A DNA stretch of 48,547 nucleotides, filler included, from Jimgerdemannia flammicorona (GCA_003990765.1; 2 parts of 2 records of this genome joined end to end with filler, not necessarily neighbours in it); one strand, 5' to 3'; positions 1 through 37,569 are shown, numbered from the whole stretch's first letter. A program made the numbers and translations. The notes: a model not told the origin generated them from the sequence alone.

Positions 1-1315
1 GTGTGTATATTGCACTGAGAAGACTGACTTTATTTCAGAGGAAATAAGAGAGGTATTTATACAAAATATAATTCAATGGTTGCTAAGATATAAAGCTAAA
101 TATAAATTCCAATAACTAAAACTACTAAGTTCTAGGGCTGGCATTATTTAGTATCACATCAAAATACCAGTACTGGAACAATTTTGCATCACCTCAGAAT
201 GCTGGTGCTGGTATTATCCAGTGTTATATGAGAATACCAGTACTGGTATTATCCAGTGTAATAAAGAACTTAGAGCAGAAAGTTCAGGATTATGGGGGCT
301 TCATCATTATCATCACTGAAGGAGATGAGATCTGCAAATTCGTCATTTTTGTGTGCTTCGATGTTATGCAGGATGACATCATCAATGATGTCATCACGTT
401 CAGCTGTGGTGGGGAAATCGGGGACAAGGTCTGGAGCTCTCCAGTCTATGAGGTTCTCTTCTACAAAATAAGGAACAAATGTAGGGTCTTGGAGAGATCT
501 AACCTGGATACTTGGGCCTTGGAATACTGAGATCAATCCTTGCAGGAATTGATCTAGGTTGTCCTGAAGGATAGGGTGCCAGAAGTCTTCTACTTCTTCA
601 CTATTGAGGGTGATAGTGGACTGGACTTCTGTAGCCACTCTGGCTTCTAGTGCATTGATATAGTGGGATGATTGGTCTCTAAAATCTGAGACTCTAACAT
701 ACTCTAAGTTGGGGATCAACTATAGTGCATGCCTGAAGATCTGATGGATCTTCCTAGCTGTCCTTGTTTCACATATATCTATGGGAGTGGCATCTTGTAG
801 CTCTTGGGTGCTGGTCTGTGGGAACTCCTGGCAGAGGAGGTTTCCTATTTCATACTCCTGCCACATTTAGAGACATTCAGTAGCAATGGTGATCCTTGTT
901 TCTATTTTGCAATGGTAGAGGATAAAGTGATAAGGATCTGCAGTACCCAGGTTAACACTAGGAGTCCTTCTTGAGCAGGTCCTCATAGCTCTTCTGATAT
1001 CTTGGAATATTCTTTCCTCAACTAAGATACCTTGGTGATTCCTTGACCTTGAGGTTTGGTAGGTGGCAGGCATTTTGTTTGTGGTAAGTCTTTGAGCTAT
1101 TTTGGGATTGGTGGTTCTTGTTGGTTGCTGCTACTGCAGTTCCTTGATCCTTCTTTTATATTCTTCAGGATGCTTATGCTGTGGTCACAATGACTCACAG
1201 TTGGTCATCATTGCTCATCTCATATGCCATATAATCTTCTTGTGCTCCAATCTGGTGGCTTGTAAGGAAAGGCTGTCTCCTGTGCTGATGTCATCATTCT
1301 GGGGTCACCATTACA
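1..1315 (-). mobile_element. LTR of the dUTPase-bearing Ty3/Gypsy family (third copy, cut by the contig start; solo LTR or 5' LTR of another copy)
   Basis: Colinear with about 5914-7223 and about 13099-14412. Ends ...GGGGTCACCATTACA at 1315 and is followed by ATAT. No polypurine tract on its right flank, unlike the LTR at 5737-7223. Confidence 0.93.
270..1073 (-). pseudogene. LTR (U3)-encoded 267-codon ORF, copy 1, with in-frame stops
   Basis: ORFs 867..1073 and 270..719 are in the same frame. The stops at 867-869 (TAA) and about 720-722 (TAG) are CAA and TGG in other LTR copies. Confidence 0.7.
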
Positions 1316-4300
1316 ATATATAAGTAAGAATAGTTTAGTAATGAAACTATAAGCTACTAGATCTAGTGAAGCCTCTGTCACATTATTTAGATTTGAAAAG
1401 ATAATTGAAAAAATATCTAAACTCAATATTAGTGATCTCAGTATTATTATAGAACTACTACTAAGAACATCAAGTCTATCAAAAATCACAATAGATCTAA
1501 TAGTTACTCTATTAAGACTACCAGCCTACAAGCTCACTTACCTTAGTAATATTATAGAAAAATCAATTAAACTATAATCAATATATTATAATAATAAAAG
1601 AAAAACTCTAACTATCTCACCAAATAGACAACAGAGACAACAGAATGATATCAGTAAATGATAAGATAGTAGTATTGGTCAACTAAGTAGCTATACTTAC
1701 TCAAGTCCTTTATCTTAGTATTAAAATAAATAAACCTACAAAAGGTCTCTATCTTACTTTATTCAAAGACAAAGTAGACCAAGTAATAATATTTATAGAA
1801 TAAGTTGATACTAATTATTATACTAATAGTTGAAATAATAATTAGAATCTAGATAGTACTCTCAATAACAATAAGTACTATAAGATTGAAAATCTCTATA
1901 TAACTATAAGCTCATAAGTAAAAAAAGTTACTATATACTTTATAGATATAGATATCTAATTGTGGTATAATCTATCAGTATACTCTCTTACTTAGAAAAC
2001 CTATACTAAAATTAATACAAGTAAAGGAGATAATGATCACTCTGACTATAAAGTCTGCCCAGCTACTATAGGTCTAAAAGTGCTAATTGTTCAGCAGTTT
2101 CATAGCTCTGCTCACATTTCTGAAACCAGAACCAAGCTCAAAAACCTATAATTCTATAATGATAGAAAAGAAGATCTTAAAGCATTCACTACAAGACTAG
2201 AAACTCTCCTAAATACTATAAGAGTAAAATATAGTTAGTGAGGACAAACTGTAAATGGAATCTAAGCTATCTATTTCTTTAATATTATCTCTGGATAATT
2301 ATCAGAAAAAATCTTTAAATAAGGATAACTCTATAATTACTTATGAGCAATAGTATCTAAAACAAGTTATTATTAGAATATATACTATCCTTATAGCTCA
2401 AAGATTAAAAGACAACAGAAACAATAAAGAAGACAAATATTACTAATTTAAGAAAAAGTATAAATCTCAGAATGAGTCCTGAAGATTATAAAGTAGATTT
2501 AGAAAACTATCTGATAAGAAAATAGAGAAATCTATAAAGAAAGAAGTATGTTTTCACTATAAAAAGAAAGAATATATATTTTACAAATATTTCAATAAGA
2601 AGACTAATATAAACAAAAAACCATTCTTCTTATATATCATTACTATGATAGAAGATAATCTCAAAGAGATCTCTGAGAAAATTAAGATCAAGAGATTATA
2701 TATTATTATAAAGATTCCAGACAAAGCACATAAATCTAATACTTACTCTAGTATAGAAGTAACTATTGAACTAGACAAGTAAGTAACAATTAGTATAGAT
2801 ATTAGAATAGAAGTCTTTAAAGAAATCTATATATATTTTATAGAAAAGAGTAGTCTGATCAAAGAAGTGAAACTCTATATATATAGCTAGAAAAGTTATA
2901 AAATAAGGATTTAAAGGTAAGATTAAGGTCTTATTATAATACTAGATAAAAGATTGTTAAAATCATATGTGAAAAATGAATTACCTAAGCTACATATCAT
3001 CAAATTAATATATAATAACCTTAAAGTTAATAAAACAAATGAACTATCATTATCTGATAGAAGAGAAAAAGCTTTTAAATTGACAGAAAAGTATTCTGAT
3101 AAGACCAAGGAGAAGACCAAGATATAGAAGATTATCTATATTAAAGAATCTCAAGACTGAGATCAGAAATAATATTAGTATATTACTAATGAATATATTT
3201 CTATAGAATGATACTCTTATAGAATCAAGATATACTATTTTAAATATATAAAAGAATATATTATATATGTTCTCAAATTTAAGAAGTATAAGTCAACCAT
3301 ATATCTCAGAATAATAAAATAAAGAAATTAAGAATATCAATAATAAAGATAGAGAAATACAAGATTGGAAAGATAAAACTACTTCAGAAATAATTACCAC
3401 CTAATAAGAAATTAATACAGAATATATCTGTCTCTAGAAAAAATTGAAGAAAACCCTATTGAAGTTCTTATTAAAGGTAGAGTAAGTAAATACTATCTCA
3501 ATTAAAAAACTGCTGATAAATTCTACCTTAAGATACAGAAGAACTCAGAAGGAAATATCACTATATTTAGAAATAGAACAATATAGAAACTCTCCAAGAT
3601 ATGTAAGAATATACTTCTATAACTCAGAGATTATACCACAAGATAAACTTTTTATATTGCATATATATCTCCCTAGATATAACCTCATTCTCAGAAAATT
3701 CTAACTCAATTAGAAGAATCTCTATATTAATTAGTAAACCAATATAATCTCTCTAGGAGATATCAATTTATAATCTGAGTATATTAAGAAGAAATCAAAG
3801 CTTATATATGATATTATCTCTGCTATCTAGATAAAGAAGCTGATTTAAAAATTAGATCAATATATCTATATATACATATATAGTTAAGAAAATCTCAGAA
3901 GAAGATAATAAAGAACTCTCTAAGCTTCTGAAGAATGAAGATGATGAGGAAGATAATCACTAAGAACTACTTAAGAACTCTAAAAACTACTACTAGCCAA
4001 ATATAGTATTGGGACTATTTCTGATTTAAATTCTTCTTACTATAGAATCTATCAACTAGCCTAACCTAAGCTAGAGATTCTCAAGGAATAACTAGCAGAA
4101 TTAATAAGCAAAAATCTCATCTATCTATCAAAATCACTATATTATATATTAATTCTCTTTATCTATAAGAAAGATAAAAATCTTTATATATATATTGATT
4201 ACTGAGCACTCGATAAGATTATAATTAAAAACTGATATATACTTCTAAGAATTGATAAACTATTTAACTAAGTATATAAGATCAAGATTATCTTACTTAT

Positions 4301-5736
4301 TCATAAACTAAGATAAGTAATCTAAAAAGATTAACTATGAGAATAATAATAAAGATTGAGATAAAAGAAGTACAACTCCCTATCAATGATCTCTATATCT
4401 AGAAGTCTAGATAGAGTATTCATATTCTGATATAGTCTATCAGGTAACTAATCTAGTATAGGTTAGTATTTATCAAAAGAACTCAGAATAGATTGAACCT
4501 CTGGCCTGCAGACCAAAAGTTCAATATCTTAACAGAGTGACCAACTCTCTATAAAAGATCAAGAAAAATTTGAGATCTCAGCTTAAGAATCAAATTAAAA
4601 CTTCTTAATTATATAGTAAAACTGAGCTCCAAATCTTGAGATAAAAAATTTATCTCAAGAATACCCTATTTAAATAAAACTCTATAAGCTCTCTAAGAAA
4701 AAAACAGTAAAACTAAAAGTCAGTCTATTTTCCTCATATTACTGATGAGAAATAAGATATAAATATTTAAGAAGATTCTATTGAAGAAAATTCTTTAGTA
4801 GTGATTGATGTCAGAATTACTTTTGGTATATAGTATCAAATATACAACTCTTTAATATCTTTAATATATAAATTTAATATATTAGACAACTATACTATAA
4901 GTATACCACTTTCTGAAAAAAATGAATATTCTGGACTTTTGACCATCCAAATAGTGTAACAATACTATATAAAAATAAGAAAACTTAATAAGAATATTAA
5001 AAAACTGAGAAAGACTATTTAATAAGGATGTTAAATTTTAAAGAAAGAGTAATATAATGAAATTACACCCCAGCATCACAAAGGATGATATCATTAAGCT
5101 GATATCATTGAATTCATATTATCAGTAAGGTTATATGTATACTAGAAAATCCAAGAATATTAGTAAGATTATAATGATTTTATACTAATTTCAGCTCTTT
5201 TTAGCTAATAATATCATAGTAATCATACTAGTCTCTACATTAGTTTAGTATATACTCATACTGACATTATTATGAATATATCTCAGAAATAGACTAAGGA
5301 TACTAAAAATAGTATAAGACTAAATTAGTCAATATCTATATTGATGTCATAAGATAAAATAGTCTATGATATTATATATAAGAACTAGAGTATATTGAAA
5401 TTAGCTATTGATATTATTAGCTCTCTGATATCAAAAGCTAGTAAGATCTTCAAAACCAGTGACTTCATGGACTAAACTAGACCATGACAAGCTATGAAAT
5501 CATAGTTGCTATAAACTAAAATAGTTTATTTAGTAAATAAATAAAAGACTAGTAAATTGGCTCTAAGAAATGATCAACTAAATAATAGTCATATGAACTC
5601 AAAGATACTTCTTAAAAAACAAAACTAGATATAAATAAATCATGTTCTCTCTTTCTGAATATATCTATCACGTACTCTAAAATACTGTTTTTATCTATCA
5701 ACATCAGTTTATCTAGAAATATATTGATATAGATAT
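1316..5736 (+). mobile_element. Very degenerate AT-rich Ty3/Gypsy relic and other TE debris (host of the younger insertions)
   Basis: About 4190-4265 reads as eroded RT motif [24 protein letters not shown] (tatattgattactgagcactcgataagattataattaaaaactgatat...). About 2547-2590 reads as an eroded CX2CX4HX4C knuckle (VCFHYKKKEYIFYKY). Near-total loss of CpG; no long ORFs. Whether the whole span is one element is not resolved. Confidence 0.7.
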
Positions 5737-7223
5737 TGTCATGTAGTGGCTGCTGAGTCCTTCAAATATGCCAGATTCTCTTCAAGGTGTATCTCTTAGA
5801 CTAACTTAAGTTGTTATAAGCAAGTTCTTATTGGAGTGCCTTCCCAAGGTCTTATAGTCCTCAAACTTCTTATCTTTAACTGTCTTATTATCTCTTAGAT
5901 TGCTTGCAAGGAAGTATATGTATTATACTGAGAAGACTGACTTTATTTCAGAGGAAATAAGAGAGGTATTTATACAAAATGTAATTCAATGGTTGCTAAG
6001 ATATAAAGCTAAATATAAATTCCAATAACTAAAACTACTAAGTTCTAGGGCTGGCATTATTTAGTGTCACATCAAAATACCAGTGCTGGAACAATTTCGC
6101 ATTACCTCAGAATGCTGGTGCTGGCATTATCCAGTATTACATGAGAATACCAGTGCTGGAATTATCTAGTGTAATAAAGAACTTAGAGCAGAAAGTTCAG
6201 GATCATGGAGGCTTCATCATCATCATTACTGAAGGAGATGAGATCCGCGAATTCATCGTTTTTGTATGCTTTGATATTACGTGGGATGATATCATTGATG
6301 ACATCATCACATTCAGCTGTGGTGGGGAAATCAGGGACAAGGTCTGGAGCTCTCCAGTCTATGAGGTTCTCTTCCACAAAATAAGGAACAAATGTGGGGT
6401 CTTGGGGAGATCTAACCTGGATACTTGAGCCTTGGAATACTGAGATCAATCCTTGCAGGAATTGATCTAGGTTGTCCTGAAGAATAGGGTGCCAGAAGTC
6501 TTCTACTTCTTTGCTATTGAGGGTGATAGTGGACTGGGCTTCTGTAGCCACTCTGGCTTCTAGTGCATTGATATGGTGAGATGATAGGTCTCTGAAATCT
6601 GAGACTCTAACATACTCCAAGTTGGGGATCGACCATGGTGCATGCCTGAAGATCTGATGGATCTTCCTAGCTGTCCTTGTTTTGCGTATATCCATGGGAG
6701 TGGCATCTTGTAGCTCTTGGGTGCTGGCCTATGGAAACTCCTAGCAGAGGAGGTTTCCTATTTTGTACTCCTGCCACATTTGGAGGCATTTGGTAGCAAT
6801 GGTGATCCTTATTTTCATTTTGCAGCAGTAGAGGATAAAGTGATAAGGGTCTGTAGTACCCAGGTTGACACTAGGAGTCCTTCTTGAGTGGGTCCTCATG
6901 GCTCTTCTGATGTCTTGGAATATCCTTTCCTCAACTGAGATACCTTAGTGATGACCTTGAGGTTTGGCAGGCAGCAGGTATTTTGTTTGTAGTAAGTCTT
7001 TGAGCTATTTTGGGATTGGTGGTTCTTGTTGGTTGCTGCTACTATGGTTCCTTGATCCTTCTTTTATATTCTTCAGGATGCTCATACTATGGTCACAATG
7101 ACTCACAGTTGGTCATCATTGCTCATCTCATATGCTGTATGATCTTCTTGTGCTCTGATCTGGTGGCTTATAAGGAAAGGCTGTCTCCTGTGCTGATGTC
7201 ATCATTCTGGGGTTACTGTTACA
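5737..7223 (-). repeat. 3' LTR (1,487 bp)
   Basis: TGTCATG...GTTACA. On the minus strand: TATAAATA at 5967-5974 and AATAAA at 5942-5947. Confidence 0.95.
6183..6981 (-). pseudogene. LTR (U3)-encoded ORF, copy 2
   Basis: Last 170 codons are open (6183..6695). Start codon mutated to ATA at 6979-6981, a 5-nt deletion near 6952, and two TAG stops near 6730-6743. Confidence 0.7.
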
Positions 7224-7233
7224 TCTTCCTCCT
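7224..7233 (-). promoter_or_regulatory. Polypurine tract (plus-strand priming site)
   Basis: Minus strand AGGAGGAAGA immediately precedes the TGTAAC start of the 3' LTR. Confidence 0.85.
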
Positions 7234-7559
7234 AAATAAGGATCTTCCTGAGCATCCTTATTCATTGGTCCAGTCCTGAAAAATTTGCTAATCCCATAAC
7301 CTCTGGCAAGGGGTCAAAAACTGGTGTTTATGGGCTGGTGTCTTCCCTTTGTATTTTAGTATGATGGTGAAGAGTCACTCCCTTTATATAGAGCAAGAGC
7401 CTGATTCTGATCTTGACCAATCAGTTGACAGTTTGAACTCCTCTGACTGCAAAAGTCTTATGGATGAGTAGTTGCCAGTACCATATTCCTTAGAGAATGG
7501 TCCAGATAGATAGCCTGCTGGTCACGGGATATGCTGTTACGATTTGCAGACTAGAACCT

Positions 7560-10500
7560 CACAGGCAGTCATCACATTTTGCTTCTCTTGTATAGGTTCA
7601 TGGTACTTCTTGAGTCTGTTCCTATGTACCATAGTAGGCAGTATGGTCCCTGAGATTTTTTTAAGCCAGAAGATAGTTTCCTTGATATCTTGCATATAGA
7701 AGGGTCCTTCTCATTTGGGCTCCAGTTTTCGTGACCATGAGGCTTCTACCATATTTCGATACAGTAGAACCTTTTCTCCAATTTGGATGGGTTCTAGGGT
7801 CTTATGATTCTTTTCTGCATTCTTCCTTATCAGTGCTTGTGACTTGGTGATATAATCTTCAGCCTTCTTCCTGATGTAGTGTAGTCTCCAGATTTCTGCA
7901 TCAACCCATCTCTAAGTTAGGTCTAGATTTGTAGCTGAGGTTCCATTAGAATCTTCTTCTCTAAAGAGCAGCTCTCTTGGGGTAAAATGTATGCTCTGTG
8001 ACTGTATGTCTCATAGAACAGAGAGGGCAGTTGGGAGATAGTTATCCCAATTCTCGTATGTCTCTGAGATCTTTGCTAGAATGTTCTTGAGGGTCTTATT
8101 GGTTCTCTCTGTCTGTCCATTTTCTTGAGAGTGGTATATGGTGGTCTTGATGTGCTGGATCTTGTATTTCTGGTACATTATCTCATAGAATCTATTGACA
8201 AATTCTGTGCCATGGTCTGTTGTGATTTGCTTTGGTATCTTGTAGCAGCAGATGATTTCTTGGTGTAGGAAATCAGCTATAGAGAGGGCATTGACTTCTT
8301 ATAATACTCCTACCTCTATCCATTTGGTGAAGAGGTCTACAATAACTATAATATAGTGGTTTCCTGATAGTGTTACTGGTAGTGGTCCAATGATATCCAT
8401 TGCGATGTAGTGGAAGGGGATAGGCTCAATTCTTGATAATCTGAGTATCTGGTCTTACTGATCTTGTTTCTGTTTTTGGTACTTGTCACACCCTTTGACA
8501 AATTGGCACAGGTCTTCTTCTATCTTGGGCCACTACATGGTTCTTCTTGCCTTGTCATATGTATTGGTTCCTCCTAAGTATCCTTGTTCATATACTTCCT
8601 TCATTACTTGATACTTCTTGTGTTCAGGTATTACCAGCTTTCCTCCTTTTCTGAGTGTAGTGTTGTCTAATTCAAACTGTTTCTAAGTCCAGTTGATGAT
8701 GGTAATTGTCCAGGGTTCAAGGTAGTTGGGTATCTTCTGCTGCCCAAGGTAGCTGATTAATCCATAGTATAGCTCCTTATTCATGTTGAATGGTCTTGAT
8801 GGGGATGTTTCAGAGTGTCCTTGAGAGTGCATCAGCATTGGTGTTGGTCTTTCCTGAGCAGTGCTTGACAGTACAGTCATACTCTTGTAGCCTGTAGATC
8901 CATCTGGCATATATTCCTTTGGAGTTCAGAGTGTGGAATAGCTAGGCAAGAGCAGAATGGTCTGTTTGAATAGTGAAGTGTTTTCCAGCTAGGTAGTAGT
9001 GGAACTTGTCTACTGCCCAAACTACTGCTAAGCATTCAAGTTTGCATGACTTGTAGTTCTGTTCTGCTCTATGGATACCTCAGCTTGTGTAGGAGATGAC
9101 ATATTCATATCCATCTTTCTTCTGAGCTAGGACTACTCTAAGTCCTATAGCACTTGTGTCTGTCTGCAGGATGAATTCTAGGCTCCAGTCTGGTCTTCTG
9201 AGGATGGGTGCTTGGGTCAACCTGGTCTTGAGTTCATTGAAGGTTTCTTGGTGCTCCTTGGTCCATTCGAATTTGGTCTCCTTCTTCAGTAGCTCATAGA
9301 TAGGTGCTGCAATGTTGGAGTATCCTTTGATGAATCTTCTGTAGTAGCTGGCCAGTCCAAGGAAGGCATGGACTTCTGTGGTTATTCTGGGTCTTGGGTA
9401 GGCTGCAACAGCCTTGATCTTCATGGGGTCTGTGTGGATTCCAGTCTGGTTGATGAGGTGTCCTAGATAGGCAATTTTTGAGCTGCAAACTTGCATTTCT
9501 TGGGCTTGATGTAGAGGCCATGCTCCTTGAGCCTCTTGAGGGCTAGCTGTATGTGATTGACATGTTCCCATGCAGTGTTGCTGAAGATGATCACATCATC
9601 AATATAGACAAAGAGCCATTTTCCAATCTCATTGCTGAAGACTCTTTTCATCATTCACTGGAAACTTGCTGGGGCATTGTATATTCCAAATGGCATTTGC
9701 AGATAGATATAGGTGGCATCAGGTGTGATGAAGGCTGATTTCTCACTGGTATCTTGAGTGAGACCGATCTGATGAAAACCTGAGAACAGATCCAAGGTGG
9801 TGTAGTATTTGGCTTCGCTTCCAAGGGTGGTAAGGATTTCTTGAATATTTGGCAAGGGCTGCCTATCCTTCTTGGTGATGGCATTGAGTTTCCTGTAGTC
9901 AATGCAGAGTCTTGGTGCAAACTCTCCAGGCTTGCTTCCTTTCTTCGGGGCAAGGACAATGGATGAGGCCCAGGGGCTGATAGCTTACTTGATGATTCCA
10001 GCTTCTTCTATTTCCTTGAGTTTGGCTTGCAGCCACTCTCTGTAGGTAGGTGGTATGGGTCTGGCTTTCTGGTAGATAGGCTTGGTATCACCAGTGTCAA
10101 CTTTGTGGTGGTACTTGGGTTCTTGATTGTGGATATCCCTAAAGTCTGTAGCAAGTACTCCTTCATTCTGATACAGGATCTTGAGAAGTTGTTCCTCCAG
10201 AGGAAAGTTTTCTCCAATGGTATATGTGTGCTTATTCTGGTCCTTGTTTTTCTTATGCTCAAGTTCAGTAATCTTGGTGGCAGCATAGGCTCCTCTTCCA
10301 GTAGATCCAAAGCCTTGTTCTCCTCTCTTGGTCTTGATAAGTTCAGTGGCCTCTATGACCTTGGGCTTCTTGATTTCGTGGATTAGCATCTGGCCAATCC
10401 TGTCATGCTTCTTGACTTCGAAGGGGGTGGTGTGGTTGTGATTTTTGACTATGAGAAAAATCTCACCAGTATAATCAGGGTCAATTACTCCTCCTTTAAC

Positions 10501-12891
10501 TGAGATTTCACTTTTGGCCAGACTGCTCCTGGTCTTGATAATTCCTGCATGGTTTTCTGGCAACTTGACTCCAATTCCAGTGCCAAGTAGGGTGGTGGTC
10601 TGTGGTTTGAGGGTAGCATCTTGGATGCTGGCAAGGTCTATTTCTATGGCTCCTTCAGTCTTGTATTCTGGGATCTTGGCTTCAGGGTGAAACTTCTTGA
10701 TCTTGAGGGTGATGTCTGATTCTTATTCCTCCTCACCGTCACTGTCAGCTTGAAGCTCTGGGGGCTGGTCATCTTCTTCAGCTTTCCTTTTTGCTTCGGC
10801 AGCTTCTTGCTCATATTTCTGTTAGTGGATTTTCCTGACTTCACTGATACAGGACCAGCAGTCATTCAGGTGTTCAGAGCAGTATATTCTAGTACCATGG
10901 GGGCATCTTTCTTGAGGGGTATACCCATCGATGATCTTGTTATACCACTGCTCATCTGTGAGCTTGGGTGTCTTGTTCTTGTTCTTATTCACCGAGTGCA
11001 TGAAGACCTCTGTGTCTTCTTCATCTCCTTCCTCTATGTCTGGCAGAACTCCTTTGTGGACATTGATAGAAACTCATACCTTTCTTCCTCTGTAGTTGAT
11101 CTGCATCTTCTGGGCATTGAGATCAATGATGGCCTTGATCTTGTGAAGCCATTGGTTGCCAATGAGGATGTCATAGTTGGTGGCACTTGTAACAATCACG
11201 TCTACTGGGATGGTAGCTCCTCCTATCTTGATGGGGACTTCTCAGATTTTGCCAAGGGGGGTAGCTTGTGTACCATCTGCTGTAATATAGACCATCTTGG
11301 TGGACTCTTCAATGTCCCAACCTAGGCGATCAATTGCCTTCTTACTCATGAGGCATCCTCTGGCACCAGTATCAATGATGGCATCAAAGATACAGTCTTC
11401 AATCTGGCAGGGGGTATAGGCTGATGTCTTGCACTGGTCTTCAGATTCTTCACCTAAGTTCTCAGATTCTTCTTGTGCATTGTGAGCTTCTACAATCTTG
11501 TACTCTTGATTCTTGACAGTAGTTGCAAGTCCTACTCTCAACTGCTGTCTGAAGGCAGAGACTTCAGCTAGCTGTCCAAAAGTGGCATTGACCTTCTGTT
11601 CCTTGAGATCCTTGTAGATATCATACTGGTAGATCTTGGTCTTGCACAGCTTCTGTTCCTTCTTGCTCTTGCTTTCTCCTAAGACTGGAGTAGTGCCTTT
11701 AATAATTTGGCAGGCAGCCTTGTCTAACTCCATGTCTTGATCAATCTCCTTGTGTTGGGTCTTACTTTGAATAGTGATAGCTGGAGTCTTTTTTGGTCTT
11801 CCAACTAGCTTGCTGTTGCTCTTCTTGTCATAGGGCTTGGACCGGGTTCTGGTACCTTCAGTAGCAGGGTAGAATTCGAGCTCCTCATAGTATTCTTCAT
11901 CATCAGTGTCACCGATTTTCTTGATGACTACTATATTAGTTTGTTCTCTAGTTCTGCTAGCATTGCTTGGTTGGGCTTTGCATCTTGTTTCGGTCATGCA
12001 ACTCTTTGCATAGTGGCCTTCTTCTCTACATCTGAAGTATGTGATATTGCATTCTTCTATAGTAGCTGCAAATCTCTACACTGGTCTCCTGTTAGCGCTT
12101 CGGACTTCTCTAACAACATCACCAAGGGGTGCAGTCATCTCAGCAAACTACTTGGCAAGTTCTTCCACTGGGTCAGCTTTGGCTATCTTGGGGGTAGGTG
12201 GGGTTGGTTGTCTGTTTACAACTGTGGTAGGTAAAATACTAGTTGGCTTTGATGGCTCCATCTTGATGCCAGTTATTTTCTCCATTGAGTGTTCGGCAGG
12301 GTGTCTGGCTGTCCAATATCTTTATGCAAAGACCACTTTCTGATCAAGGGTCAGTGCAGCTGGGGTAGACCGAATTGCTAGGGCAATTTCAGGGTAAACT
12401 CCTTTGAGGAAGGTTGAATTCACTATTTGTTCCTTGAGGGTATCATCATAGCCAGCCAAGACAATCTGGTGACAGATTTGGGTATAGAATGAGTTGGGAT
12501 CTTCACTAAGTCCCTGGTGGATAGTATTGAGTTGATCCTTGAGAGCTTGCTTGATCTCTTCAGTATAATATGTTGTTCTGAGGAAGGTCTTCATGTTGGC
12601 AAGTTTGACTGCATCTGCACTAGCAATGGTGGCTGCATTAAACTTGTTTCTGGTAGGTCCTCTGAGACTGACTGGTAGAAGGGCCAATTGAGCATCTATA
12701 CCAAGGGCTTGTACAGCGGCAAATTGTTCAAAGTCTTCAATAAAGGTCAGGATTGACTCTTCAGTAGTATATCTATAGAATGTGGGGGGCATATTTCCAT
12801 CTTGTCTTAAATTCTTGCAGGGGTGACTCTTGTAGTCAGGGTAGTTGTTGTGGGGGTTGTTCGTTTTTCAGCTTGAAAGTGAGGGATTCAT
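7560..12891 (-). pseudogene. gag-pol polyprotein with many nonsense and frameshift lesions
   Basis: Gag 12322..12792. Zinc knuckle (C>Y)FRCREEGHYAKSC at about 11998-12040. Aspartic protease AIIDTGA at about 11365. RT motifs CIDYRKLN, LDLFSGFHQI, MPFG..NAPASFQ, VYIDDVII. RNase H LQTDTS. Integrase IAMDIIGPLP, TDHGTEF, NGQTERTNKTL and GPF motif at about 7700. No chromodomain seen. Confidence 0.93.
10295..10713 (-). other. Trimeric-type dUTPase domain within pol
   Basis: All five motifs readable in frame with downstream pol: GA(IE)IDL, IKTRSSLA, GGVIDPDYTGEI, DRIGQM, RGEQGFGSTG. Confidence 0.93.
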
Positions 12892-12920
12892 CTTGAATCA
12901 CCAACCAATGGACACTAAGT

Positions 12921-14412
12921 TGTCATGTAGTAGTTGCTGAGTCCTTCAAATATGCCAGATTCTCTTCAAGATGTATCTCTTAGACTAACTCAAGTTGTTA
13001 TAAGCAAGTTCTTATTGGAGTGCCTTCCCAAGGTCCCATAGTCCTCAAACTTCTTATCTTTAACTGTCTTGTTATCTCTTAGATTGCTTGTAAGGAAGTA
13101 TGTGTATTGCACTGAGAAGACTGACTTTATTTCAGAGGAAATAAGAGAGGTATTTATACAAAATATAATTCAATGGTTGCTAAGATATAAAGCTAAATAT
13201 AAATTCCAATAACTAAAACTACTAAGTTCCAGGGCTGGCATTATTTAGTGTCACATCAAAATACCGATGCTGGAACAATTTTGCATCACCTCAGAATGCT
13301 GGTGCTGGCATTATCCTGTATTACATAAGAATACCGGTGCTGGCATTATCTAGTATAACAAAGAACTTAGAGCAGAAAGTTCAGGATCATGGGGGCTTCA
13401 TCATCATCATTACTGAAGGAGATGAGATCTGCAAATTTATCATTTTCGCGTGCTTCAATGTTATGCGGGATGACATCATCGATGACGTCATCACGTTCGG
13501 CTGTGGCAGGGAAATCGGGGACAAGGTCTGGAGCTCTCCAGTCTATGAGGTTCTCTTCCACAAAATAAGGAACAAATGTGAGGTCTTGGAGAGATCTAAC
13601 CTGGATGCTTGGGCCTTGGAATACTGACATCAATTCTTGCAGGAATTGATCTGGGTTGTCCTGAAGGATAGGGTGCCAGAAGTCTTCTACTTCTTTGCTG
13701 TTGAGGGTGATAGTGGACTGGGCTTCTGTAGCCACCCTGGCTTCTAGTGCATTGATATGGCAGGATAATAGGTTTCTGAAATCTGAGACTCTAACATACT
13801 CTAAGTTGGGGATCGACTATAGTGCATGCCTGAAGATCTGATGGATCTTCCTAGCTGTTCTTGTTTCACGTATATCCATAGAAGTGGTATCTTGTAGCTC
13901 TTAGGTGCTGGCCTGTGGGAACTCCCAGCAGAGGAGGTTTCCTATTTCATACTCCTGCCACATTTGGAGGCATTCAGTAGCAATGGTGATCCTTGTTTCC
14001 ATTTTGTAGCGGTAGAGGATAAAGTGATAAGGGTCTGTAGTATCTAGGTTGATACTAGGAGTCCTTCTTGAGCAGGTCCTCATAGCTCTTCTGATGTCTT
14101 GGAACATCCTTTCCTCAACTGAGATACCTTGGTGATTCCTTGATCTTGAGGTTTGGTGGGCAGCAGGCATTTTATTTGTGGTAAGTCTTTGAGCTATTTT
14201 GGGATTAGTGGTTCTTGTTGGTTGCTGCTACTGTGGTTCCTTGATCCTTCTTTTATATTCTTCAGGATGCTTATACTGTGGTCACAATGACTCACAGTTG
14301 GTCATTATTACTCATCTCATATGTCATATGATCTTCTTGTGCTCCGATCTGGTAGCTTATAAAGAAAGGCTGTCTTCTGTGCTGATGTCATCATTCTGGG
14401 GTCATCGTTATA
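12921..14412 (-). repeat. 5' LTR (1,492 bp)
   Basis: TGTCATG...CGTTATA, colinear with the other two LTRs. Minus-strand TATAAATA at 13151-13158. Confidence 0.95.
13367..14170 (-). pseudogene. LTR (U3)-encoded 267-codon ORF, copy 3
   Basis: ORFs 13901..14170 and 13367..13735 are in the same frame. ATG-to-stop span is 804 nt, identical to copy 1. The stop at 13901-13903 is CAA in the other copies. Confidence 0.7.
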
Positions 14413-17400
14413 ATATCTATGATATAGATATCTATGATCTTAAGTAATATCTATAAGCTACTGATAAAGTTGTATCTAAAATATAATAGGTCACCAGATA
14501 CTTCATAATATTAAGAAACTCTCAAGTAAATAGACTTATTATCAGAAATAGTATAAATACTTTAGAGATACTAGATAAATACAATGTCTCTATATTTAAA
14601 CAATATATTTTGCTCCATATCTACTAATTGTTCAAGAAAATATCCTTTGCTATTAGTAATATATACATATATAAGAGATAGCTCTTGTTGAAATTGGTAG
14701 TCTCAATGATAACCACATAACTTAAGTAGAGTTAGATCTTACAAATGACTTTAACCTTCAAGACTGCTATAATGATAATGCTTGGTTTTATAAGAATGAG
14801 ATATTTACATGGCTCTTTCTGATATATCTTATATTATATAAATATATATTACCTACTTTTATACTGTTCTTTGGAGAAATGTCTTAAGAATATATCCTCA
14901 AATCAGAGTTCTACAGAGTGTACTAGGCAGAGTGATCTCAGTACATTTGGCTGGCAGTATGTGGGTAGGGGTCAGGGAGTAGGGTTAGATATGCTGAGCA
15001 CTTTAGTAGATAGAAGGGAGATCAGCAGTAGTGGAGGAGGAAACAAGGTGCAGCCAGAGAGAAATTGGATGAGCTTTGCTAAGAAGGTCAAGTAGGGGAG
15101 TCTGGCAGCTAGACTGGATAGATGGCTACAGAGTGGCAAGGGAAAGACTACTACTGGGGGGCTGGGAGAGGCTCCCTTGAGGGTGTCTGGTAGAAGGGCT
15201 AGTAGTGTAGTAGCTGGGAGTATGACTGCTAATAGAGTAGTGACTGGTAATCTGGAAAAAAATACAAATGTAACTGCTGATGGTAAGACTGAGAAGATGG
15301 GGCCCAGCTGGGTAGAGGACCTAGCAGATGATGTGATGGGCCTGACAATGGCCCCATTACTCAAAAAGTCAATTTTAGAGTTCATAATTACTTTGTGCTT
15401 CTGGGGCTTAGCAGTAATAGTAAAAATAGTCTTGGGGCTAATTGCTAAGCAGATGGATAGTATGGTGTCCATGAAGTTTCTGAGGGGTTTGAAAGGAGTA
15501 GAGGTGGGCTTTGAGGAGGCTAGGCTATTGAAGGCCATACTGAAGACAGAGCTGACTATTGGAGAGGTATGTGTCTCAATAGTATGATACTTGAGATAGG
15601 ACTCCAGGGTGGTATAACTTCTGGTAAAAGGAGTATCTACAGTGACTACTGTAGAAATAAGGAGGAGAGTTGAGGAGATCATAGCTGAGTATAGAGAGGT
15701 AGTTGATGTTGGGTTTCAGGTCTAGGAAGGGACCTCATTTAGGATAGAAAATGTTGATATCTGAATTTGGCTGGCTGAGAGAGAGACTACCAGGAAGACT
15801 CATAATTGGCCATCAGTAATAGTGTGGAGGGCCTTTGTATATAAGATGATGAGAGTGAAGGAGAGTGAGAAGAAGAAGGAGGATTTATTGGAGATACTGA
15901 AGGAACTAAGTAGTATAGTAGAGCATAGAGCAAAGGCTTGGAAGATATATGTAGAGTTGATATACTTAGAGATAGTGGATGGGAAGTATGTCTGAATTGA
16001 TAAGAGGCTGTGAGAGAGGTTCTAAGGGTACAAGAGGTAGAGGGAGTTGCTGGCAAATCTGGAAGAGAAGGTGAAGAGGAATACTGGAGGCATTGAGGAT
16101 ACTGAGAGTGCCAAAGTGAGTATCTGGGTCAGCAAGAGAGGAGAAAATGTGAAGGAGGGTCCTGAAGAGGCTGGAAAGGTACCAAGCAAAGACCCATATA
16201 CAGATAGTATGTTTGAAGTCTGAGAAGATACTCCTCTTATCAGAAGGGATCTAGCCTCAAGGAGCAGGACAGCAGAGAATGTGCCTATGTAAGAGGCTCA
16301 GCAAGTATACTTTGGAGTTCCCAAGATGGTGAAAGAGAGTCAGGTAGTAGTGATAGATGAGGATGAACTGGTGAATATACCTGAGAAGGAGTGGGATGAG
16401 ACTGTGAGTGCAGGGACTGATACCTCAATACTGGGAGAGAGGAGATAAGTAACTTCAGATAGAAAGGAGGTGGAAAACCTATAGTGAATGTATTAGATGA
16501 TAAACAACTTGATGGCTAAGAAGTTGGGTGATGTGGACCTAAAGGTGCTTAGTGATGATCAATGGGTATGAATTTTGTATGAAGATGAAGTAGTAGAGGT
16601 CCTGAAGGTTGAGGTACTTGTAGTTTTCTTAAAAGAGTATGAGATTGATAAGACAAAAGAGGCAGAACTAGTGGTTATTGCTAGGGAGTGAGCTACTCTT
16701 TGGTAAGTGGAGAGATATGGATTGTAGCTCTGACAGAAAGCTTACTTAGAGTATTGTGAGGATGTTGAGGAAAAGAAGGATGAGGAGTTAGCAGAACTAC
16801 TGGTAGAATTGGAGGCTAAGAGAGTTGAAGAGGAGGAAGTAGCTATTGAATACAATTTAGACTTAGTACAGGAGGAGATAAATGTGAAGCTATAGAGAGT
16901 ATACTTGACTTTTAACATTACTTCCTATAAATAGTACAACTAATATTTTTTTCTTTGAATATAAATAGACTATGTAGTTCAGTATAATAATGGAATATTT
17001 TTACTTAGCTGAAAATATTGAGGGCTGATCTCTTTCTTTTACAGGATATCAGATATGAGAATGACTTAGATAGACTAGATTGGATAAAGAAATGAGAAGA
17101 TAAGGCAGTCTGGAAGAGTAAGATTGGGATTTTTATTTGGAGAGACAAAGGAGAGATATAAGATGTGAGGAGCTTGGAGAGACTGACTGGTTTGGAGAGA
17201 GTAGAGTCAACTGGATTGAGAGCCAATTACAGTAGGTTTCTACTACTATTCTGCTGTGTAAGGTAAGTGGATGGAGTGGGTGAAGAGACTCTAAGAAAGT
17301 GGGGCCCTTGTAGAGGCTGAAGTAGACATTCTTGGAGGGGACTTTAATATAGTTAGAGATGTATTGGCAGATAGAACTGATAGAGGGTAGGGAGCTGGAG

Positions 17401-17684: not shown

Positions 17685-19034
17685 GCATATGGTATACCAT
17701 CTCTCTCTGGTATAATTTGCATTACACAAACTTCAAGTAATGGTTTTACATACAACTCAGAGAAATAAACATGGGCAATATAGGCAACATGGGCAAGATG
17801 GGCAAGATGGACAAGATGGGCAAGATGGCAAGATCACAAGATGGGTGACATGGGCAAGACAAGCAGATAGCAAGACAGGTGATATGGGCAAAATGGGCAA
17901 TACAGGCAATATGGGCAACATGGGCAACATGGGAAATATGGGCAACATGGGCAACATGGGTGGGCAAGACAGACAAGATGGGCAAGATAGGCAAGATGGC
18001 AAGACGACAAGATGGGTGACATAGGCAAGATGGGCAAGATGAGCAAGATAGACAAGATGGGCAAGATGGGCAAGATGGGCAAGACGGACAAGATGGCAAG
18101 ATGGTAAGATGGGCGACATGGGCAAGATGGGCAGATGGCAAGACAGGAGATATGGGCAAGATGGGCAAAATGGGCAAAATGGGCAAAATAGACAAAACGG
18201 ACAAAATGGGCAACATGGGCAATATCAGCAACACGGGCGGGCAATATGGGCAACATGAGCAGGCAATATAGGCAACATGGGCAATACAGGCAACACAGGC
18301 AACACGGGTAACATGGGTGGGCAAGATGGGTAAGAAAGGTAAGATGGCAAGATGGGTGACATAGGCAACACAGGCAACACAGGAAACACGGGTAACATGG
18401 GTGGGCAAGATGGGTAAGAAAGGTAAGATGGCAAGATGGGTGACATAGGTAAGATGGGCAGACAGCAAGACAGGTGACATGGGCAAGATGGGCAAAACAG
18501 GCAAAATAGGCAAAACAGGCAATATGGGCAACATGGGTAATACAGGCAACATAGGCAACATGGGCAGGCAAGATGGGCAAGATGGGCAAGATAGGTAATA
18601 TGGGTAACATGGGCAAGATGGACAAGATGGGCAATATGGGCAACATGGGCAGGCAACACAGGCAACACAGATAACACAGGCAATATGGGCAGGCAAGATG
18701 GGCAAGATGGGCAAGATAGCAAGATGGCAATACAGGCAACATGGGTGGGCAAGATGGGCTAGATGGGTAAGACAGGAGGTACTAATAGGGGTAGGTCAGA
18801 TGCACTAGATGCCAAGTACTTGAGGTGGTTGGGGTTCACAACCCATACCCACTGGGTGGAGCAGGCCAGGTAGAAGGATCTAGTTACTCGGGCAGTAAGA
18901 TCACAACTCATACTCTAAAGGTGTAAGGCTGAGAGTGGGTTAAGATTGGAGTAGAATGGGACTACTGATGTTGTAAGAGGATATGTGGTATGTTATAGAT
19001 AGTTAATAAATGAGTAACAAGGGGCAAAAAAAAA

Positions 19035-24224: not shown

Positions 24225-24324
24225 NNNNNNNNNNNNNNNNNNNNNNNNNNNNNNNNNNNNNNNNNNNNTTAATTAATTAANNNNNNNNNNNNNNNNNNNN
24301 NNNNNNNNNNNNNNNNNNNNNNNN
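24225..24324. other. Artificial contig linker (44 N + TTAATTAATTAA + 44 N)
   Basis: Exactly 100 bp with a palindromic six-frame stop cassette. Flanking contigs are 24,224 and 24,223 bp. Confidence 0.97.
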
Positions 24325-27959: not shown

Positions 27960-30296
27960 TGAGGTCGTGTTCAGATTCAGAGACTCGGCTAGAGGGTGTG
28001 TCCCCTCGTCGAAGCCGTTCACCAAACATGAACATAGGGTGGATGAGCCAACATGTACAGATCGTGTTTGATTCCATCACGCAGCTGTACACACCGTTCC
28101 GACATACCAAAGAGATTCAGCGTGGCCAAGGCTTTAGAGATTAGGCCAGGGCACATGCCCATTGTTGCTGATGTTGTTCACTAAACACGAACAGGGGATG
28201 GATGAGCGAACACGCACAGATCATGAGTTTGATTCCATCGCCCAGCTGCACGCAATGTTTCTCATATTCTGACATACAACAGAGATTCAGCGTGGTCAAG
28301 GTTGTGTTCTGCTTCAGAGATTCGGCTAGGGCACATACCCCCTTGTCGTTTATGCTGTTGACTGAAATATGAAAATGCAAACACGCACAGATTGTGGGCT
28401 GGATTCTATGGCGCAGCTACACGCAATATTTCACGCAGTTTTGAGGTCCAGCATAGTCAAGGTCGTGTTCTGCTTCAAAGATTGGGCTAGGGCGCGTGCC
28501 CCCTTGTCTCCGATGCTGTTCGCTGAGCATAAGCAGAGGATGGATGAGCGAACAGGCACAGATCGTGAGCTATAATAATTCACATAGTTCTGACATACTG
28601 CAGAGATTCAGCGTGGTCGAGGTCGTGTTCTGATTAAGAGACTCGGCTAGGGTGCGTGCCCCCTCATCGTGAACGGGGATAGAGGAGCAAACATGCACAG
28701 ATCGTGAGCTTGATTAGATCGCGCAGCTGAACACAATGCTCTGACATACAAAAAAGATCCAGCGTGGCCAAGGTTGTGTTCTGCTTCAGAGACTCGGCTA
28801 GGGCGCATGCCTCCTCGCCGCTGATCCTGTTCGCTAAACATAAACAGGAGATGGATGGGCGAACACGCCTAGATTGTGAGATTGATTCCATCACATTCTG
28901 CTTGAGGGACTCGGCTAGGGCGCGTACCCCTTCGTCTCCGATGCTATTATCTGAACGTGAACAGGATATGAATGACCGAACACGCACAGATCATTAGCTC
29001 GCAGCTGCACACAATACCTTACACAGTTCTGACATACGTCCGAGATCTGGCGTGGTCAAAATCATGTTATGTCTCTAGGGCACATGCTGAAAATAAACTG
29101 GTGATGGATAAGCAAACACGTACATATCGTGAGCTTGATTCCGTCACACAGCTGCACACAATTATTCACACAGTTCTGGCATACCTTGGAGTTTCAGCGT
29201 GGTCAAGGTCATGTTCTGCCTCAGCGACTCGGCTAGGGAACTTGCCCCTTCGTGGTCGATGCTGTTGTCTGAACATGAACAGGGGATGGATGAGCGAACA
29301 GGTACAAATCGTGAACTTGATTACGTCGCGGAGCTGTATACAATACTTCACACAGTTCCAACATACCTCTGAGATTCAGTATGGCCAAGGCCATGTTCTG
29401 CTTCAGAAACCCGGCTATGGTACGTGCCCTCTTTATGGCTGATGCTGTTGTTTGAACATGGATGAGTATTACGAGCTTGATTTCCATCGCGCAGCTGCAC
29501 ACAATGCTTCACACAGTTCCAGCATACTTTCGAGATCCAGCATAGCCAAGGTCGTGTTCTGCTTCGGAAATTGGGCTAGGAACATGCCCCCTTGTCATCG
29601 ATCCTGTTCCCTGAACATGAGCTGGGATGGATGAGCAAACACGCACACAGATTATGGGCTTGATTCCACCGCGCAACTACACGCAATATTTCACGCAGTT
29701 CGATATACTTTTGAGATCCAGCATAGTAAAGGTCTTGTTCTGCTTCAAAGATTGGGCTAGGGCGCGTGCCCACTCGTCGCTGAAGCTGTTCGCTGAACAT
29801 AAACAGGGAATGGATGAGCGAACACGCACAGATTGTGAGTTTGATTCCATCGTGCAGCTGCACACAATTATTCATATAGCTCCGATATACTGCAGAGATT
29901 CAGCGTGGTCAAGGTCGTGTTCTGCTTCAGAGACTCGGCTAGGGCGCATGCCCCTCGTCGCTGATGCTGTTATCTGAACATGAATAGAGATGGATGAGCG
30001 AACACGCACATATCGTGAGCTTGATTCCATCGCACAGCTTCACATAATGTTTCACAAAGTTCTGACATACTTCCGATATTCAGCGTGGTCAATGTCGTGT
30101 TCTACTTCAGAGACTCGGTTAGAGCGCGTGCCTCATCGTGTTGTCTGATTATAAACAGGGGATGGATGAGTGAATGCGTGCAGATCATGAGCTTGATTCC
30201 ATCGCGCATCTTCACATGTTTCACGCAGTTCTAACATACATCGGAGATTCAGCGTGGTCAATGTCGTGTTCTGCCTCAGAGACTCAGCTAGAGCGA
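27960..30296 (-). repeat. Tandem array of about 15 [84-nt LRR exon + about 95-nt intron] units
   Basis: Exact 84-nt AG/GT-bounded exons at 28278-28361, 28750-28833, 29185-29268 and 29709-29792 encode N.I...GA.ALAESLKQNTTLTTL.L. The introns (GTATGT...GTTCAG) are themselves homologous. Confidence 0.92.
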
Positions 30297-31460
30297 CCAC
30301 GAGCAATTTCACGACCTCGGCGTGTCCAAATTCCGCGGCATTGTCCAGCGGCGAAAATCCCAAATTATCCTTGGCGTTGAGATCCGTCCCGAACTCGGCC
30401 ACGAGCAGCTTCACGACTTCGATGTCCCCTCCCTTCGCAGCCATGTGCAGCAGCGTCTGCCCGTCGAAGTTCTTGTTGAGGTCCGCTCAGAACTCAGCCA
30501 CGAGCAGCCTCACGACTTCGATGTACCCTCCCCTCGCAGACATGTGCAGCGGCGTCCATCCTTTGATGTTCTTGGCATTTGCGTCCGCCCCGAATACGGC
30601 TATGAACTCGACATGTCCATTTTCTGCGGCGCGGTGCACTAGCGTGTTACCTTGTCCTCTGTATTGGTTTTTGCATTGAATTCGAATACGAGTAGCTCGA
30701 ACACGTTAATGTGACCTTTTTCTGCAGCTAAGACCTCCCTCAGCTGCGCGATGTAACAACGGAAGAGAATGATCAAACTTGATCAACAGCGAAATTGTCC
30801 TGTTTTCCTTATAAAGTTTGGACTAGTACTTCATCCTGTCATTGTTCTTATTGACGCCATCGCCCCACCGATAGTAATTTGCAACCTTTTCTTGTGCTCC
30901 TTTGTCGCCTGCTTTTGCAGCCTTCAAGTGCCTTCTTTTTGTCCATGTCATTCTTCGTAACAAACAGCAATGGTTAGCTGCGCTTCTAAATGTCCATTCA
31001 TCGCAGTTTTAGTACATCACTCAATCTGCTTTTCTAAATCATTCGCAACGCCGAAGCCTACTCCACAACATAGTGCAATATAGAACTGTATCTCCAGATG
31101 TTGGTATACCAAATTTCAGTTCTGGGCTATACCGACGCGCACGGGCGGTCTCTTTCCCCGCTGCAAACCTTCTTCGACTATTTGGCATTTCGTCGCCGCA
31201 CTTGAAGAATTTTGGGTTTCGTGTCATCCGTGGGTGGACAAAAGTCTGTGCAACTTTATTCGTTCCCATGAGCTTAATTGCCATATGTGGTGTAAAAGCG
31301 AAGCATAAAAAATTTTCCCGATCGAGGCCAAAATCAGAATTGGGTGGACTAATTGAATACTCCTTCTCGGATTCATACTTTTTCGAGAGATGGAGCATGT
31401 GTGAGACAAGAGCTCCTTAAACGGCCGGGGTAAAATATGGAGAGATCGGCCATCTATTAT
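27960..31460 (-). pseudogene. Kinase-like / SEL1 / ankyrin / RI-type LRR multidomain gene (decayed)
   Basis: 5' to 3': DFGL and RYSPE kinase-like motifs (about 31330 and 31125); SEL1 repeat LKAAKAGDKGAQEKVANYYRWGDGVNKN (about 30845-30930); about 5 ankyrin repeats (GWTPLHMSARGG, GQTLLHMAAKGG, GFSPLDNAAEFGH; about 30297-30740); then LRR exons. In-frame stops at about 30488 and about 30824. The kinase call is the weakest part. Confidence 0.78.
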
Positions 31461-34575: not shown

Positions 34576-35006
34576 ATGGTGATGTGGGAGCGCGGTAGAA
34601 GGAGAGAATTGGAGGAATGTCGGGCTTGTAGCTGGACTATTTAGATGCTAGATGGGCTGACAAGGTTAAACACCGATCAACGGCAAACTGAAATAGAACT
34701 CTATATCCGGGTCCCGTTGATCTGTATCTTAAGAGTGACTGGATGTGCTGCCCGCGGAAAATGAATGGTATGACGGAAATGTAAATGAGCCACGGCTGGC
34801 TGATCCTGCGTTAAATCGGGGAACGCAGTAAAGATAGAAGTACATGCGCCATGTATATGTCATAGCAGGGAGATAGTTATACAATAAGTTTGTGTTTCCC
34901 CACGGTTCATTGAATTGGTTGGATTAGGGATACCAGCATGGGTTGAGTTAGCTGCCAAACATGTACTGGCTGCATACCAGCCATACTTTTTCGATTGATA
35001 CCCAGC

Positions 35007-37504: not shown

Positions 37505-37569
37505 TGCAAGTTGGTTCTCATTGCCGACTTTGGCTTGGTGAATGGAAATTATTATTATTTTTGTCAGTG

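Follow-up and report, generated by a model that had tools for sequence, protein, structure and literature searches.

Can the long terminal repeat (LTR) of a fungal retrotransposon carry a complete protein gene and, if so, how would that gene be expressed and what would its product do? These questions are raised by a 48,547-nt stretch of DNA from Jimgerdemannia flammicorona (GCA_003990765.1), referred to below as the window, in which two parts of the genome, not necessarily neighbors, are joined end to end with filler. Self-BLAST and alignment identify three direct copies of an LTR of about 1.49 kb in its first 14.4 kb (c1, c2, and c3), two of which bound the interior of a Ty3/gypsy retrotransposon. 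An earlier note, made without being told where the DNA came from, claimed that all three copies hold the same sense-strand open reading frame (ORF) within the unique 3′ (U3) region of the LTR. The explanation that best fits the whole is an LTR accessory gene with its own promoter in U3 and a trans-acting nuclear product, and we put its probability at about 50%. The parts of this explanation differ in strength. That a real, selected protein gene lies in the LTR is very probable; the proposals for its expression and its function are progressively less secure.

A reading frame conserved inside the LTR

The frame is found at 1073-270, 6981-6183, and 14170-13367, exactly where the earlier note had placed it, and it lies whole within each LTR copy, with the ATG 242 nt inside the repeat. 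Every premature stop had been said to be a sense codon in another copy, and this holds at all six stop positions, where CAA, CAG, or TGG stands in at least one other copy of the window. In c1 and in c3 the ORF frame contains 2 stops each, compared with 10–26 in the other five frames over the same span. Across the shared stop the earlier note had read the consensus peptide HQIFRHAPWSIPNLEYVRVSDF, and an intact database protein, P0001, carries this peptide letter for letter.

The same two positions that are stops in c3 are largely sense codons in other collections of the repeat. Four public runs (X1, X5, X11, and X12), representing a soil metagenome and two organisms, were aligned to c3 as contigs. 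At position 13818 (TAG to TGG on the coding strand), the sequencing depth with the sense codon is 484.7 of 501.6 in X1 (21 contigs), 26.3 of 26.3 in X5, 5.45 of 8.65 in X11, and 835 of 835 in X12. At position 13903 (TAA to CAA), the corresponding values are 911.8 of 911.8 (25 contigs), 25.4 of 25.4, 323.6 of 361.9, and 835 of 835.

The pattern of change among the window copies indicates how the frame was lost. A three-way alignment of the LTRs has 191 singleton differences in 1373 columns, of which 163 are transitions and 28 are transversions; C>T changes fall at CpA in 41 of 60 cases and G>A changes at TpG in 30 of 45. Because the singleton changes are mostly transitions, and the C>T changes mostly at CpA, in-frame stops are the expected outcome of C-to-T decay. 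The CpG observed/expected ratio is 0.10–0.24 in the element versus 1.08 in the host part of the window (30500-48547). The depletion in the element but not in the host genes, together with the C>T changes at CpA, suggests repeat-targeted cytosine mutation. The three ORF copies in the window are dead relics.

Intact relatives of the encoded protein exist. A protein search with the c3 frame (with X at its two stops) returned 6 matches among 5.77 billion proteins, and a family-profile search of as many proteins returned 11 clusters of relatives, with identity down to about 30%. An exhaustive HMMER scan gave 5 matches among 1.84 billion representatives. Full-length intact members include P0002 (271 aa), P0009 and P0011 (both 323 aa), P0019 (342 aa), and P0021 (325 aa). 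Each of these begins MP(A/P), as does the window frame. The full-length relatives, which are 56%, 41%, and 33% identical to P0002, have a set of motif blocks in common, and the insertions and deletions among them preserve the frame. The blocks that characterize the family are W(Q/H)(E/D)YEI, HQ(I/V)F(R/H)H.P..I, WNP.L.DNPDQ, and F(Q/E)GPP, and most members have an acidic tail that closes with DLI(S/T)F and P..LNF.

Selection on the frame was assessed by Nei-Gojobori estimates of the ratio of nonsynonymous to synonymous change (dN/dS), using a codon alignment guided by the protein alignment. For the relatives' DNA, one locus served as the outgroup: L001, a diverged 1,345-nt contig among metagenome contigs holding at least one matching locus, whose ORF is like P0011 in length and in the rows compared. 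Against L001, dN/dS is 0.178 for c1 and 0.190 for c3 (pN 0.27–0.28, pS 0.68–0.70), values that are rough given that dS is saturated (1.8–2.0) and the alignment is protein guided. Control frames shifted by one or two bases on the same nucleotide alignment give 1.07–1.17. Differences from L001 by codon position number 93/69/134 and 89/67/130, with an excess at the third position. Comparison of the window copies with one another gives a ratio of 0.43, versus 0.59–0.60 in shifted frames, as expected from neutral decay after insertion.

As evidence against its proposal, the earlier note would have accepted a consensus broken by stops or frameshifts, or a dN/dS near 1 between diverged subfamilies with no homologous ORF in related elements. 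The diverged relatives are intact at 271–342 aa, and the ratio to the diverged subfamily is 0.18–0.19 with shifted frames at 1.07–1.17; the proposal that the LTR carries a genuine accessory gene thus gains support on both counts. A frame that is open by chance, or through constraint acting on the U3 DNA, would agree with the broken state of all three window copies and with the lack of any known domain match. It is nevertheless very hard to credit against the contrast in dN/dS between the true and shifted frames and the third-position excess, the intact relatives at 30–56% identity, and the much larger number of stops in every other frame. Taken together, the comparisons show, at the level of sequence, that the ORF exists as a gene family under purifying selection.

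Whether this gene belongs to the element or merely rides on it is a separate matter. A host gene could have been transduced into U3 by read-through, with its selection unrelated to transposition or its capture recent, and it would then have no role for the element. Gene transduction by LTR retrotransposons is documented in the excerpted text of a review (PMC7264820), and the protein is unlike any known retroelement protein. The same excerpts describe transduced genes as occurring in one or a few copies (PMC7264820), whereas the ORF is present in all three LTRs of the window and in thousands of X1 contig pieces (2142 aligned). Subfamilies as distant as about 30% identity share their start and end motifs, the locus L001 retains the same LTR signals around its ORF, and merely 5 representatives were found among 1.84 billion. 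No longer or differently built relative, including fused forms, appeared among 8000 scored candidates of 600–2000 aa, which is weak evidence. A passenger gene is, on this balance, improbable. Derivation from the element's own coding region finds no support either: the family has no tblastn match in the window at E<0.1 outside the three LTR copies, which indicates that the ORF is not gag or pol derived. No relative of the family was found in viral contigs.

The carrier element and its surroundings

The ORF is carried by a decayed dUTPase-bearing fungal Ty3/gypsy retrotransposon. Two direct LTRs, c2 and c3, with ends of the TG..CA type, enclose an interior whose predicted products are those of such an element (Table 1). 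The matches to Pfam are weak for the gag-like ORF (Retrotrans_gag, E 0.071) and the CCHC knuckle (E 0.013) and stronger for the enzymes: Asp_protease_2 (4.8e-07), RVT_1 (2.2e-13), RT_RNaseH_2 (1.3e-16), Integrase_H2C2 (1.1e-10), and rve (5.1e-10). Along the minus strand, protease, reverse transcriptase (RT), RNase H, and integrase follow one another as they do in Ty3/gypsy elements. Between protease and RT, at 9985-10722 (-), is a dUTPase domain (PF00692, E 2.5e-28). No chromodomain was detected 3′ of the integrase in the carrier element.

The interior order, a purine tract (AGGAGGAAGA, 7233-7224) that adjoins c2, and an ATAT on each outer side of the element indicate that c3 is the 5′ LTR and c2 the 3′ LTR of one old insertion, with the flanking ATAT, at 4 nt, being short and weak support. 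Pairwise LTR identity is 92.4% for c2/c3 (1483 columns), 91.7% for c1/c3 (1371), and 92.0% for c1/c2 (1308). The first copy could stand alone as a solo LTR, or it could be the 5′ LTR belonging to an element located beyond the window. In this decayed element, no clear tRNA-complementary or self-priming primer-binding site was recognized in the 55 nt after c3, and no tRNA genes were found in the window.

Table 1. Coordinates of the LTR copies, the reading frame, and the associated signals. Positions are counted from the first letter of the window; (-), minus strand; U5, unique 5′ region; P1 and P2, upstream and downstream TATA motifs.
Feature	Coordinates	Strand	Details
LTR copy 1 (c1)	1..1315	(-)	Truncated in U5 by window start; self-BLAST, alignment
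LTR copy 2 (c2), 3′ LTR	5737..7223	(-)	1487 nt; termini TGTAAC and ATGACA
LTR copy 3 (c3), 5′ LTR	12921..14412	(-)	1492 nt; termini TATAAC...ATGACA
Internal region	7224..12920	(-)	gag-like, CCHC, aspartic protease, dUTPase, RT, RNase H, integrase; interrupted by stops and frameshifts
LTR ORF, c1	270..1073	(-)	804 nt = 267 codons + stop; in-frame stops at codons 69 (TAA) and 118 (TAG)
LTR ORF, c2	6183..6981	(-)	799 nt; ATA replaces ATG; 5-nt deletion in codons 10-12; stops at aligned codons 14, 82, and 86
LTR ORF, c3	13367..14170	(-)	804 nt = 267 codons + stop; in-frame stops at codons 90 (TAA) and 118 (TAG)
P1 GAATATAAAAG, c1	1153..1163	(-)	Upstream TATA motif
P1 GAATATAAAAG, c2	7061..7071	(-)	Upstream TATA motif
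P1 GAATATAAAAG, c3	14250..14260	(-)	TATAAAAG begins 87 nt upstream of ATG
P2 TATA TGTATAAATACC, c1	52..63	(-)	AATAAA block GAAATAAAGTCAG at 24..36
P2 TATA TGTATAAATACC, c2	5965..5976	(-)	AATAAA block GAAATAAAGTCAG at 5937..5949
P2 TATA TGTATAAATACC, c3	13149..13160	(-)	Presumed genomic-RNA promoter; motif also in L001
GAAATAAAGTCAG with AATAAA, c3	13121..13133	(-)	AATAAA begins 27 nt after first T of TATAAATA

The public runs that hold parts of the LTR are mainly soil metagenomes. In X11 and X12, two small runs from one organism, the contigs cover the LTR (12820-14429) at a likeness of at least 85% and do not extend over the adjoining gag (12400-12819). There the LTR family may be joined to a different interior or exist chiefly as solo LTRs; such contigs, which may or may not derive from RNA, are uninformative on expression.

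Several further observations concern the ground around the LTRs. The BLAST alignment of c1 with c3 runs about 50 nt past the LTR 5′ end (1316-1362 and 14413-14465), and these AT-rich flanks have AGTAGCTTATAG in common. The likeness could reflect the same older repeat as the insertion site, a target preference, or chance. The block of about 4.4 kb between c1 and c2 (1363-5735) has 24.5% GC, a CpG observed/expected ratio of 0.03, and a TpA ratio of 1.14 (measured over 1400-5700). It looks like a relic of some repeat heavily mutated from C to T, in the manner of repeat-induced point mutation.

Farther along the window, a 9-nt unit (ATGGGCAAG) is repeated in tandem about 102 times across 17771-18651, with a strong G-over-C skew and long open minus-strand frames. 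Two runs of 44 Ns (24225-24268 and 24281-24324) are assembly gaps or masked stretches. A repeated region at 27962-30295 includes a unit of about 181 nt present 4.6 times in tandem (29473-30295), with looser copies upstream. Host-type genes follow: an S28 serine carboxypeptidase exon at 33384-33821 (-) (1.8e-24), an intact 342-aa protein-tyrosine phosphatase at 42259-43284 (+), and a weak P450 fragment at 45476-45934 (-) (2.5e-04, under the Pfam cut-off). The phosphatase's nearest clusters in the ESM Atlas are fungal, with Basidiomycota the commonest phylum in the top cluster and Ascomycota in the next two. The host was judged to be a fungus.

Signals around the frame and how it might be expressed

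How the gene might be expressed has to be read from the signals around it. The ORF was proposed to lie upstream of the LTR's TATAAATA/AATAAA pair and to have a TATA of its own. Both proposals stand: the pair follows the ORF in all three copies, with TATAAATA at 13158, 208 nt downstream of the ORF stop in c3, and TATAAAAG begins 87 nt before the ATG and is invariant in the diverged locus L001. In that locus, the 11-mer GAATATAAAAG is at 1-11, an intact ORF of 323 codons at 69-1040, TATAAATA at 1218, and AATAAA at 1244. This diverged relative thus keeps the order of TATAAAAG, ORF, TATAAATA, and AATAAA. An alignment of c1, c3, and L001 leaves the 11-mer GAATATAAAAG unchanged throughout and conserves the bases before the ATG (AAGACTyACyACAAAyAAA); the stretch after the stop is unalignable. 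AATAAA follows TATAAATA at a distance of 27 nt in the window, compared with 26 nt in L001, and the intervening bases differ between c3 and L001.

These signals suggest an arrangement with two promoters. The upstream TATA, P1 (TATAAAAG), would drive a monocistronic mRNA of about 1.1 kb comprising a short leader, the ORF, and a 3′ untranslated region of about 250 nt, and this mRNA would terminate at the LTR's own AATAAA. The downstream TATA, P2 (TATAAATA, 26–27 nt upstream of AATAAA), would start the genomic RNA at or just beyond AATAAA. The 5′ copy of AATAAA would then go untranscribed, and the 3′ LTR alone would polyadenylate the genomic RNA. On this arrangement the ORF would lie in U3, and every LTR, including solo LTRs, would be a complete gene. 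That the ORF has its own promoter and sits in U3 seems to us an evenly balanced proposition.

Several points weigh against the explanation as a whole. The evidence on expression consists of sequence motifs, and the combination of TATAAATA and a downstream AATAAA may instead be a fungal pair of poly(A) signals, one for efficiency and one for positioning, which would place the ORF in a long repeat (R) region. Just one relative locus, L001, was read as DNA, and it spans neither LTR end, so that the location within an LTR is seen directly in this window only.

The choice between U3 and a long R as the site of the ORF turns on the TATA from which the genomic RNA starts. If TATAAAAG were the sole promoter, with TATAAATA and AATAAA setting the efficiency and position of poly(A) addition, the ORF would be within an R of about 1.1 kb. 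Transcripts stopping at the first poly(A) site would be ORF mRNA, and those reading through would be genomic RNA with the ORF as first cistron. The conserved motifs fit this scheme as well as they fit two promoters, and yeast-type 3′-end signals do consist of a UA-rich element followed by an A-rich element. It is rated lower because a 267-codon upstream ORF would be expected to strongly impede Gag translation and because about 1.1 kb would be an exceptional length for the R of an LTR element. In addition, the preservation of the 26–27-nt spacing between TATAAATA and AATAAA in c3 and L001, despite differing bases in between, fits a transcript start at or past AATAAA. A long R is the main rival to two promoters and, both in outline and in its read-through detail, is unlikely.

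A third scheme, modeled on retroviral accessory genes, would translate the ORF from spliced genomic RNA, with a leader joined to an acceptor before the ATG in the 3′ LTR. Part of the expression of mouse mammary tumor virus (MMTV) sag comes from spliced RNA, and a possible acceptor (..CCCAAAATAG) lies about 27 nt upstream of the ATG. The intron would have to be about 5.8 kb, compared with the tens to few hundred bases typical of fungal introns; the segment with the candidate acceptor is missing from L001 (a 21-nt alignment gap); and the invariant TATAAAAG upstream of the ORF would be left unexplained. Spliced expression is therefore distinctly improbable, and two promoters in one LTR remain the preferred explanation.

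The predicted product and its precedents

The full-length members are hydrophilic, acidic, and presumably soluble proteins with computed isoelectric points of 4.5–4.9, and their charge is unevenly spread. In P0002, the net charge is +8 over the first 60 residues and -14 over the last 60; residues 211-270 hold 18 D+E versus 4 K+R, along with the motifs FADLISF and ILNFLL, and P0011 and P0019 are similar. The tail has the composition of an acidic activation domain (net negative, disordered, with bulky hydrophobic residues), a likeness in composition only, accompanied by low values of the predicted local distance difference test (pLDDT). A pattern of the nine-amino-acid transactivation-domain (9aaTAD) type matches the conserved YFVEEN(L/V/I)ID block in 6 of 9 members and YFVEEDVID in a seventh, which is offered as a lead only. 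Ad hoc patterns for nuclear export and nuclear localization signals had no match at a conserved position. No membrane segment is found in any of the six members tested, where the highest Kyte-Doolittle mean over 19 residues is 0.47–1.07.

AlphaFold models the family as a helical core to about residue 190 with nothing confident beyond, at a mean pLDDT of 37.7 for P0002 (13 sequences) and 56.3 for P0017 (17 sequences), the latter with a predicted template modeling score of 0.53. The earlier note recognized no domain, and the Pfam, PDB-sequence, and fold searches likewise yielded no assignable match. Pfam returned no family for two window ORFs at E<=0.1 and no consistent family among 17 relatives at E<=1. 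A weak match to ATG5_HBR in 3 of the 17 (best E 0.028) was treated as noise. A sequence-profile search of the PDB gave zero matches at E<=10. With the P0017 model, whose mean pLDDT is only 56.3, the best results were E 1.4 (Foldseek, PDB), Z 4.5 (VIA, wide), and E 0.17 (BFVD), from which no fold can be named and no relationship to Tas, Tax, or Tat drawn. A query of the ESM Atlas with P0002 produced no match of at least 0.9 (best 0.83), and the Atlas model of this protein has a pLDDT of 0.35. By these searches, the protein is a new family lacking a recognizable relative or fold.

The make-up of the protein, with a basic N terminus of 60 residues, a helical core, and an acidic-hydrophobic tail, is the ground for proposing a nuclear adaptor or activator role. 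The product might act in trans in the nucleus, either regulating how the element itself is expressed or serving as an adaptor whose tail brings in a host factor. Against this part of the explanation stand its derivation from composition, the lack of a relative in Pfam, PDB sequences, Foldseek, VIA, or the Atlas, and the weakness of the structure models (mean pLDDT 37.7 and 56.3). A nuclear regulator or activator is thus a tentative suggestion, on the doubtful side.

The nearest precedent for the arrangement is MMTV sag, a complete gene inside the LTR upstream of the main promoter and hence present in both LTRs. It is the only such LTR ORF among the literature matches listed. The ORF studied here has the same kind of location, occupying 14170-13367 of the LTR (14412-12921), ahead of TATAAATA at 13158. 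In MMTV, a vertebrate betaretrovirus, sag encodes a superantigen that is a type II membrane glycoprotein. In contrast, the protein predicted from the window is acidic and presumably soluble, lacks a membrane segment, and belongs to a fungal Ty3/gypsy element; the window ORFs, with no Pfam match at E<=0.1, show no membership of the superantigen family. Without a membrane segment, a Sag-like or Env-like membrane protein was excluded. The foamy-virus tas/bet genes and lentiviral nef are small 3′ accessory genes that overlap U3, and Tas transactivates its own LTR. Those genes start in the internal region, whereas the window ORF is wholly in the LTR, from an ATG 242 nt inside it to a stop 208 nt short of the second TATA. 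The PDB-sequence and BFVD searches found nothing resembling tas, bet, or nef in sequence or fold.

Extra genes are also known from LTR retrotransposons. According to excerpts of a review, additional ORFs (aORFs) in plant Ty3/gypsy elements and brtn in Boty of Botrytis are ORFs of unknown function that are conserved in most family copies, with a nuclear or regulatory role suggested (PMC7264820). The LTR ORF resembles them, on that partial account, as a conserved extra ORF of an LTR-retrotransposon family. The aORFs are described there as sitting in the internal region, either between the 5′ LTR and gag or, mostly, between pol and the 3′ LTR, where brtn is antisense (PMC7264820). Here the ORF differs in being on the sense strand and inside the LTR rather than the internal region; neither "in the LTR" nor "within the LTR" occurs anywhere in that review (PMC7264820). 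The backbone of the carrier has counterparts as well. In excerpts of a second paper, a dUTPase between protease and RT is described for PosPlaTy3-5 of Postia placenta, and this element, Tmt1 of Tuber, and Phanerochaete elements have the same backbone as the window element (PMC2864245). The excerpts mention no LTR ORF in these dUTPase-bearing elements; a legend lists an "add. ORF" with its position unstated (PMC2864245). A purely functional analogy is offered by CERV of Cer1 in Caenorhabditis elegans, which is reported to be a nuclear accessory protein of a Ty3/gypsy-type element that acts on the element's RNA.

A search of full-text literature, with subscription-journal papers outside its coverage, listed no report of an LTR-borne gene for any Ty3/gypsy or fungal element. 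Two candidate precedents were rejected: the "LTR ORFs" of a Talaromyces paper are pol ORFs, and "LTRs encode" in a Blumeria preprint refers to reverse transcriptase.

A gene inside the LTR, and possibly in U3 as in retroviruses, is now seen in a fungal Ty3/gypsy element, where it encodes a new protein family. The frame is best explained as a genuine accessory gene with no part outside the LTR of this dUTPase-bearing retrotransposon; being inside the LTR, the ORF is copied into both LTRs at each transposition and remains in solo LTRs. The boldest form of the proposal is speculative, and we consider it more doubtful than not: every LTR, solo LTRs included, would be a cassette of promoter, ORF, and poly(A) signal for a novel nuclear factor, either a transactivator or an anti-silencing factor, and hundreds of solo LTRs would act as dispersed helper genes for a few intact elements. 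It would then be the first U3-borne Ty3/gypsy accessory gene, with a new fold family.

Retrotransposon LTRs are treated as noncoding control regions and are masked by annotation pipelines, and a conserved LTR gene alters this picture. It extends to fungal Ty3/gypsy elements an arrangement known from a mammalian retrovirus through MMTV sag. A gene in the LTR is present twice per element, outlives the recombination that deletes the interior, and could be expressed from scattered solo LTRs. Through such expression, "dead" LTRs could still serve, or police, their family's active members, a possibility that can be tested.

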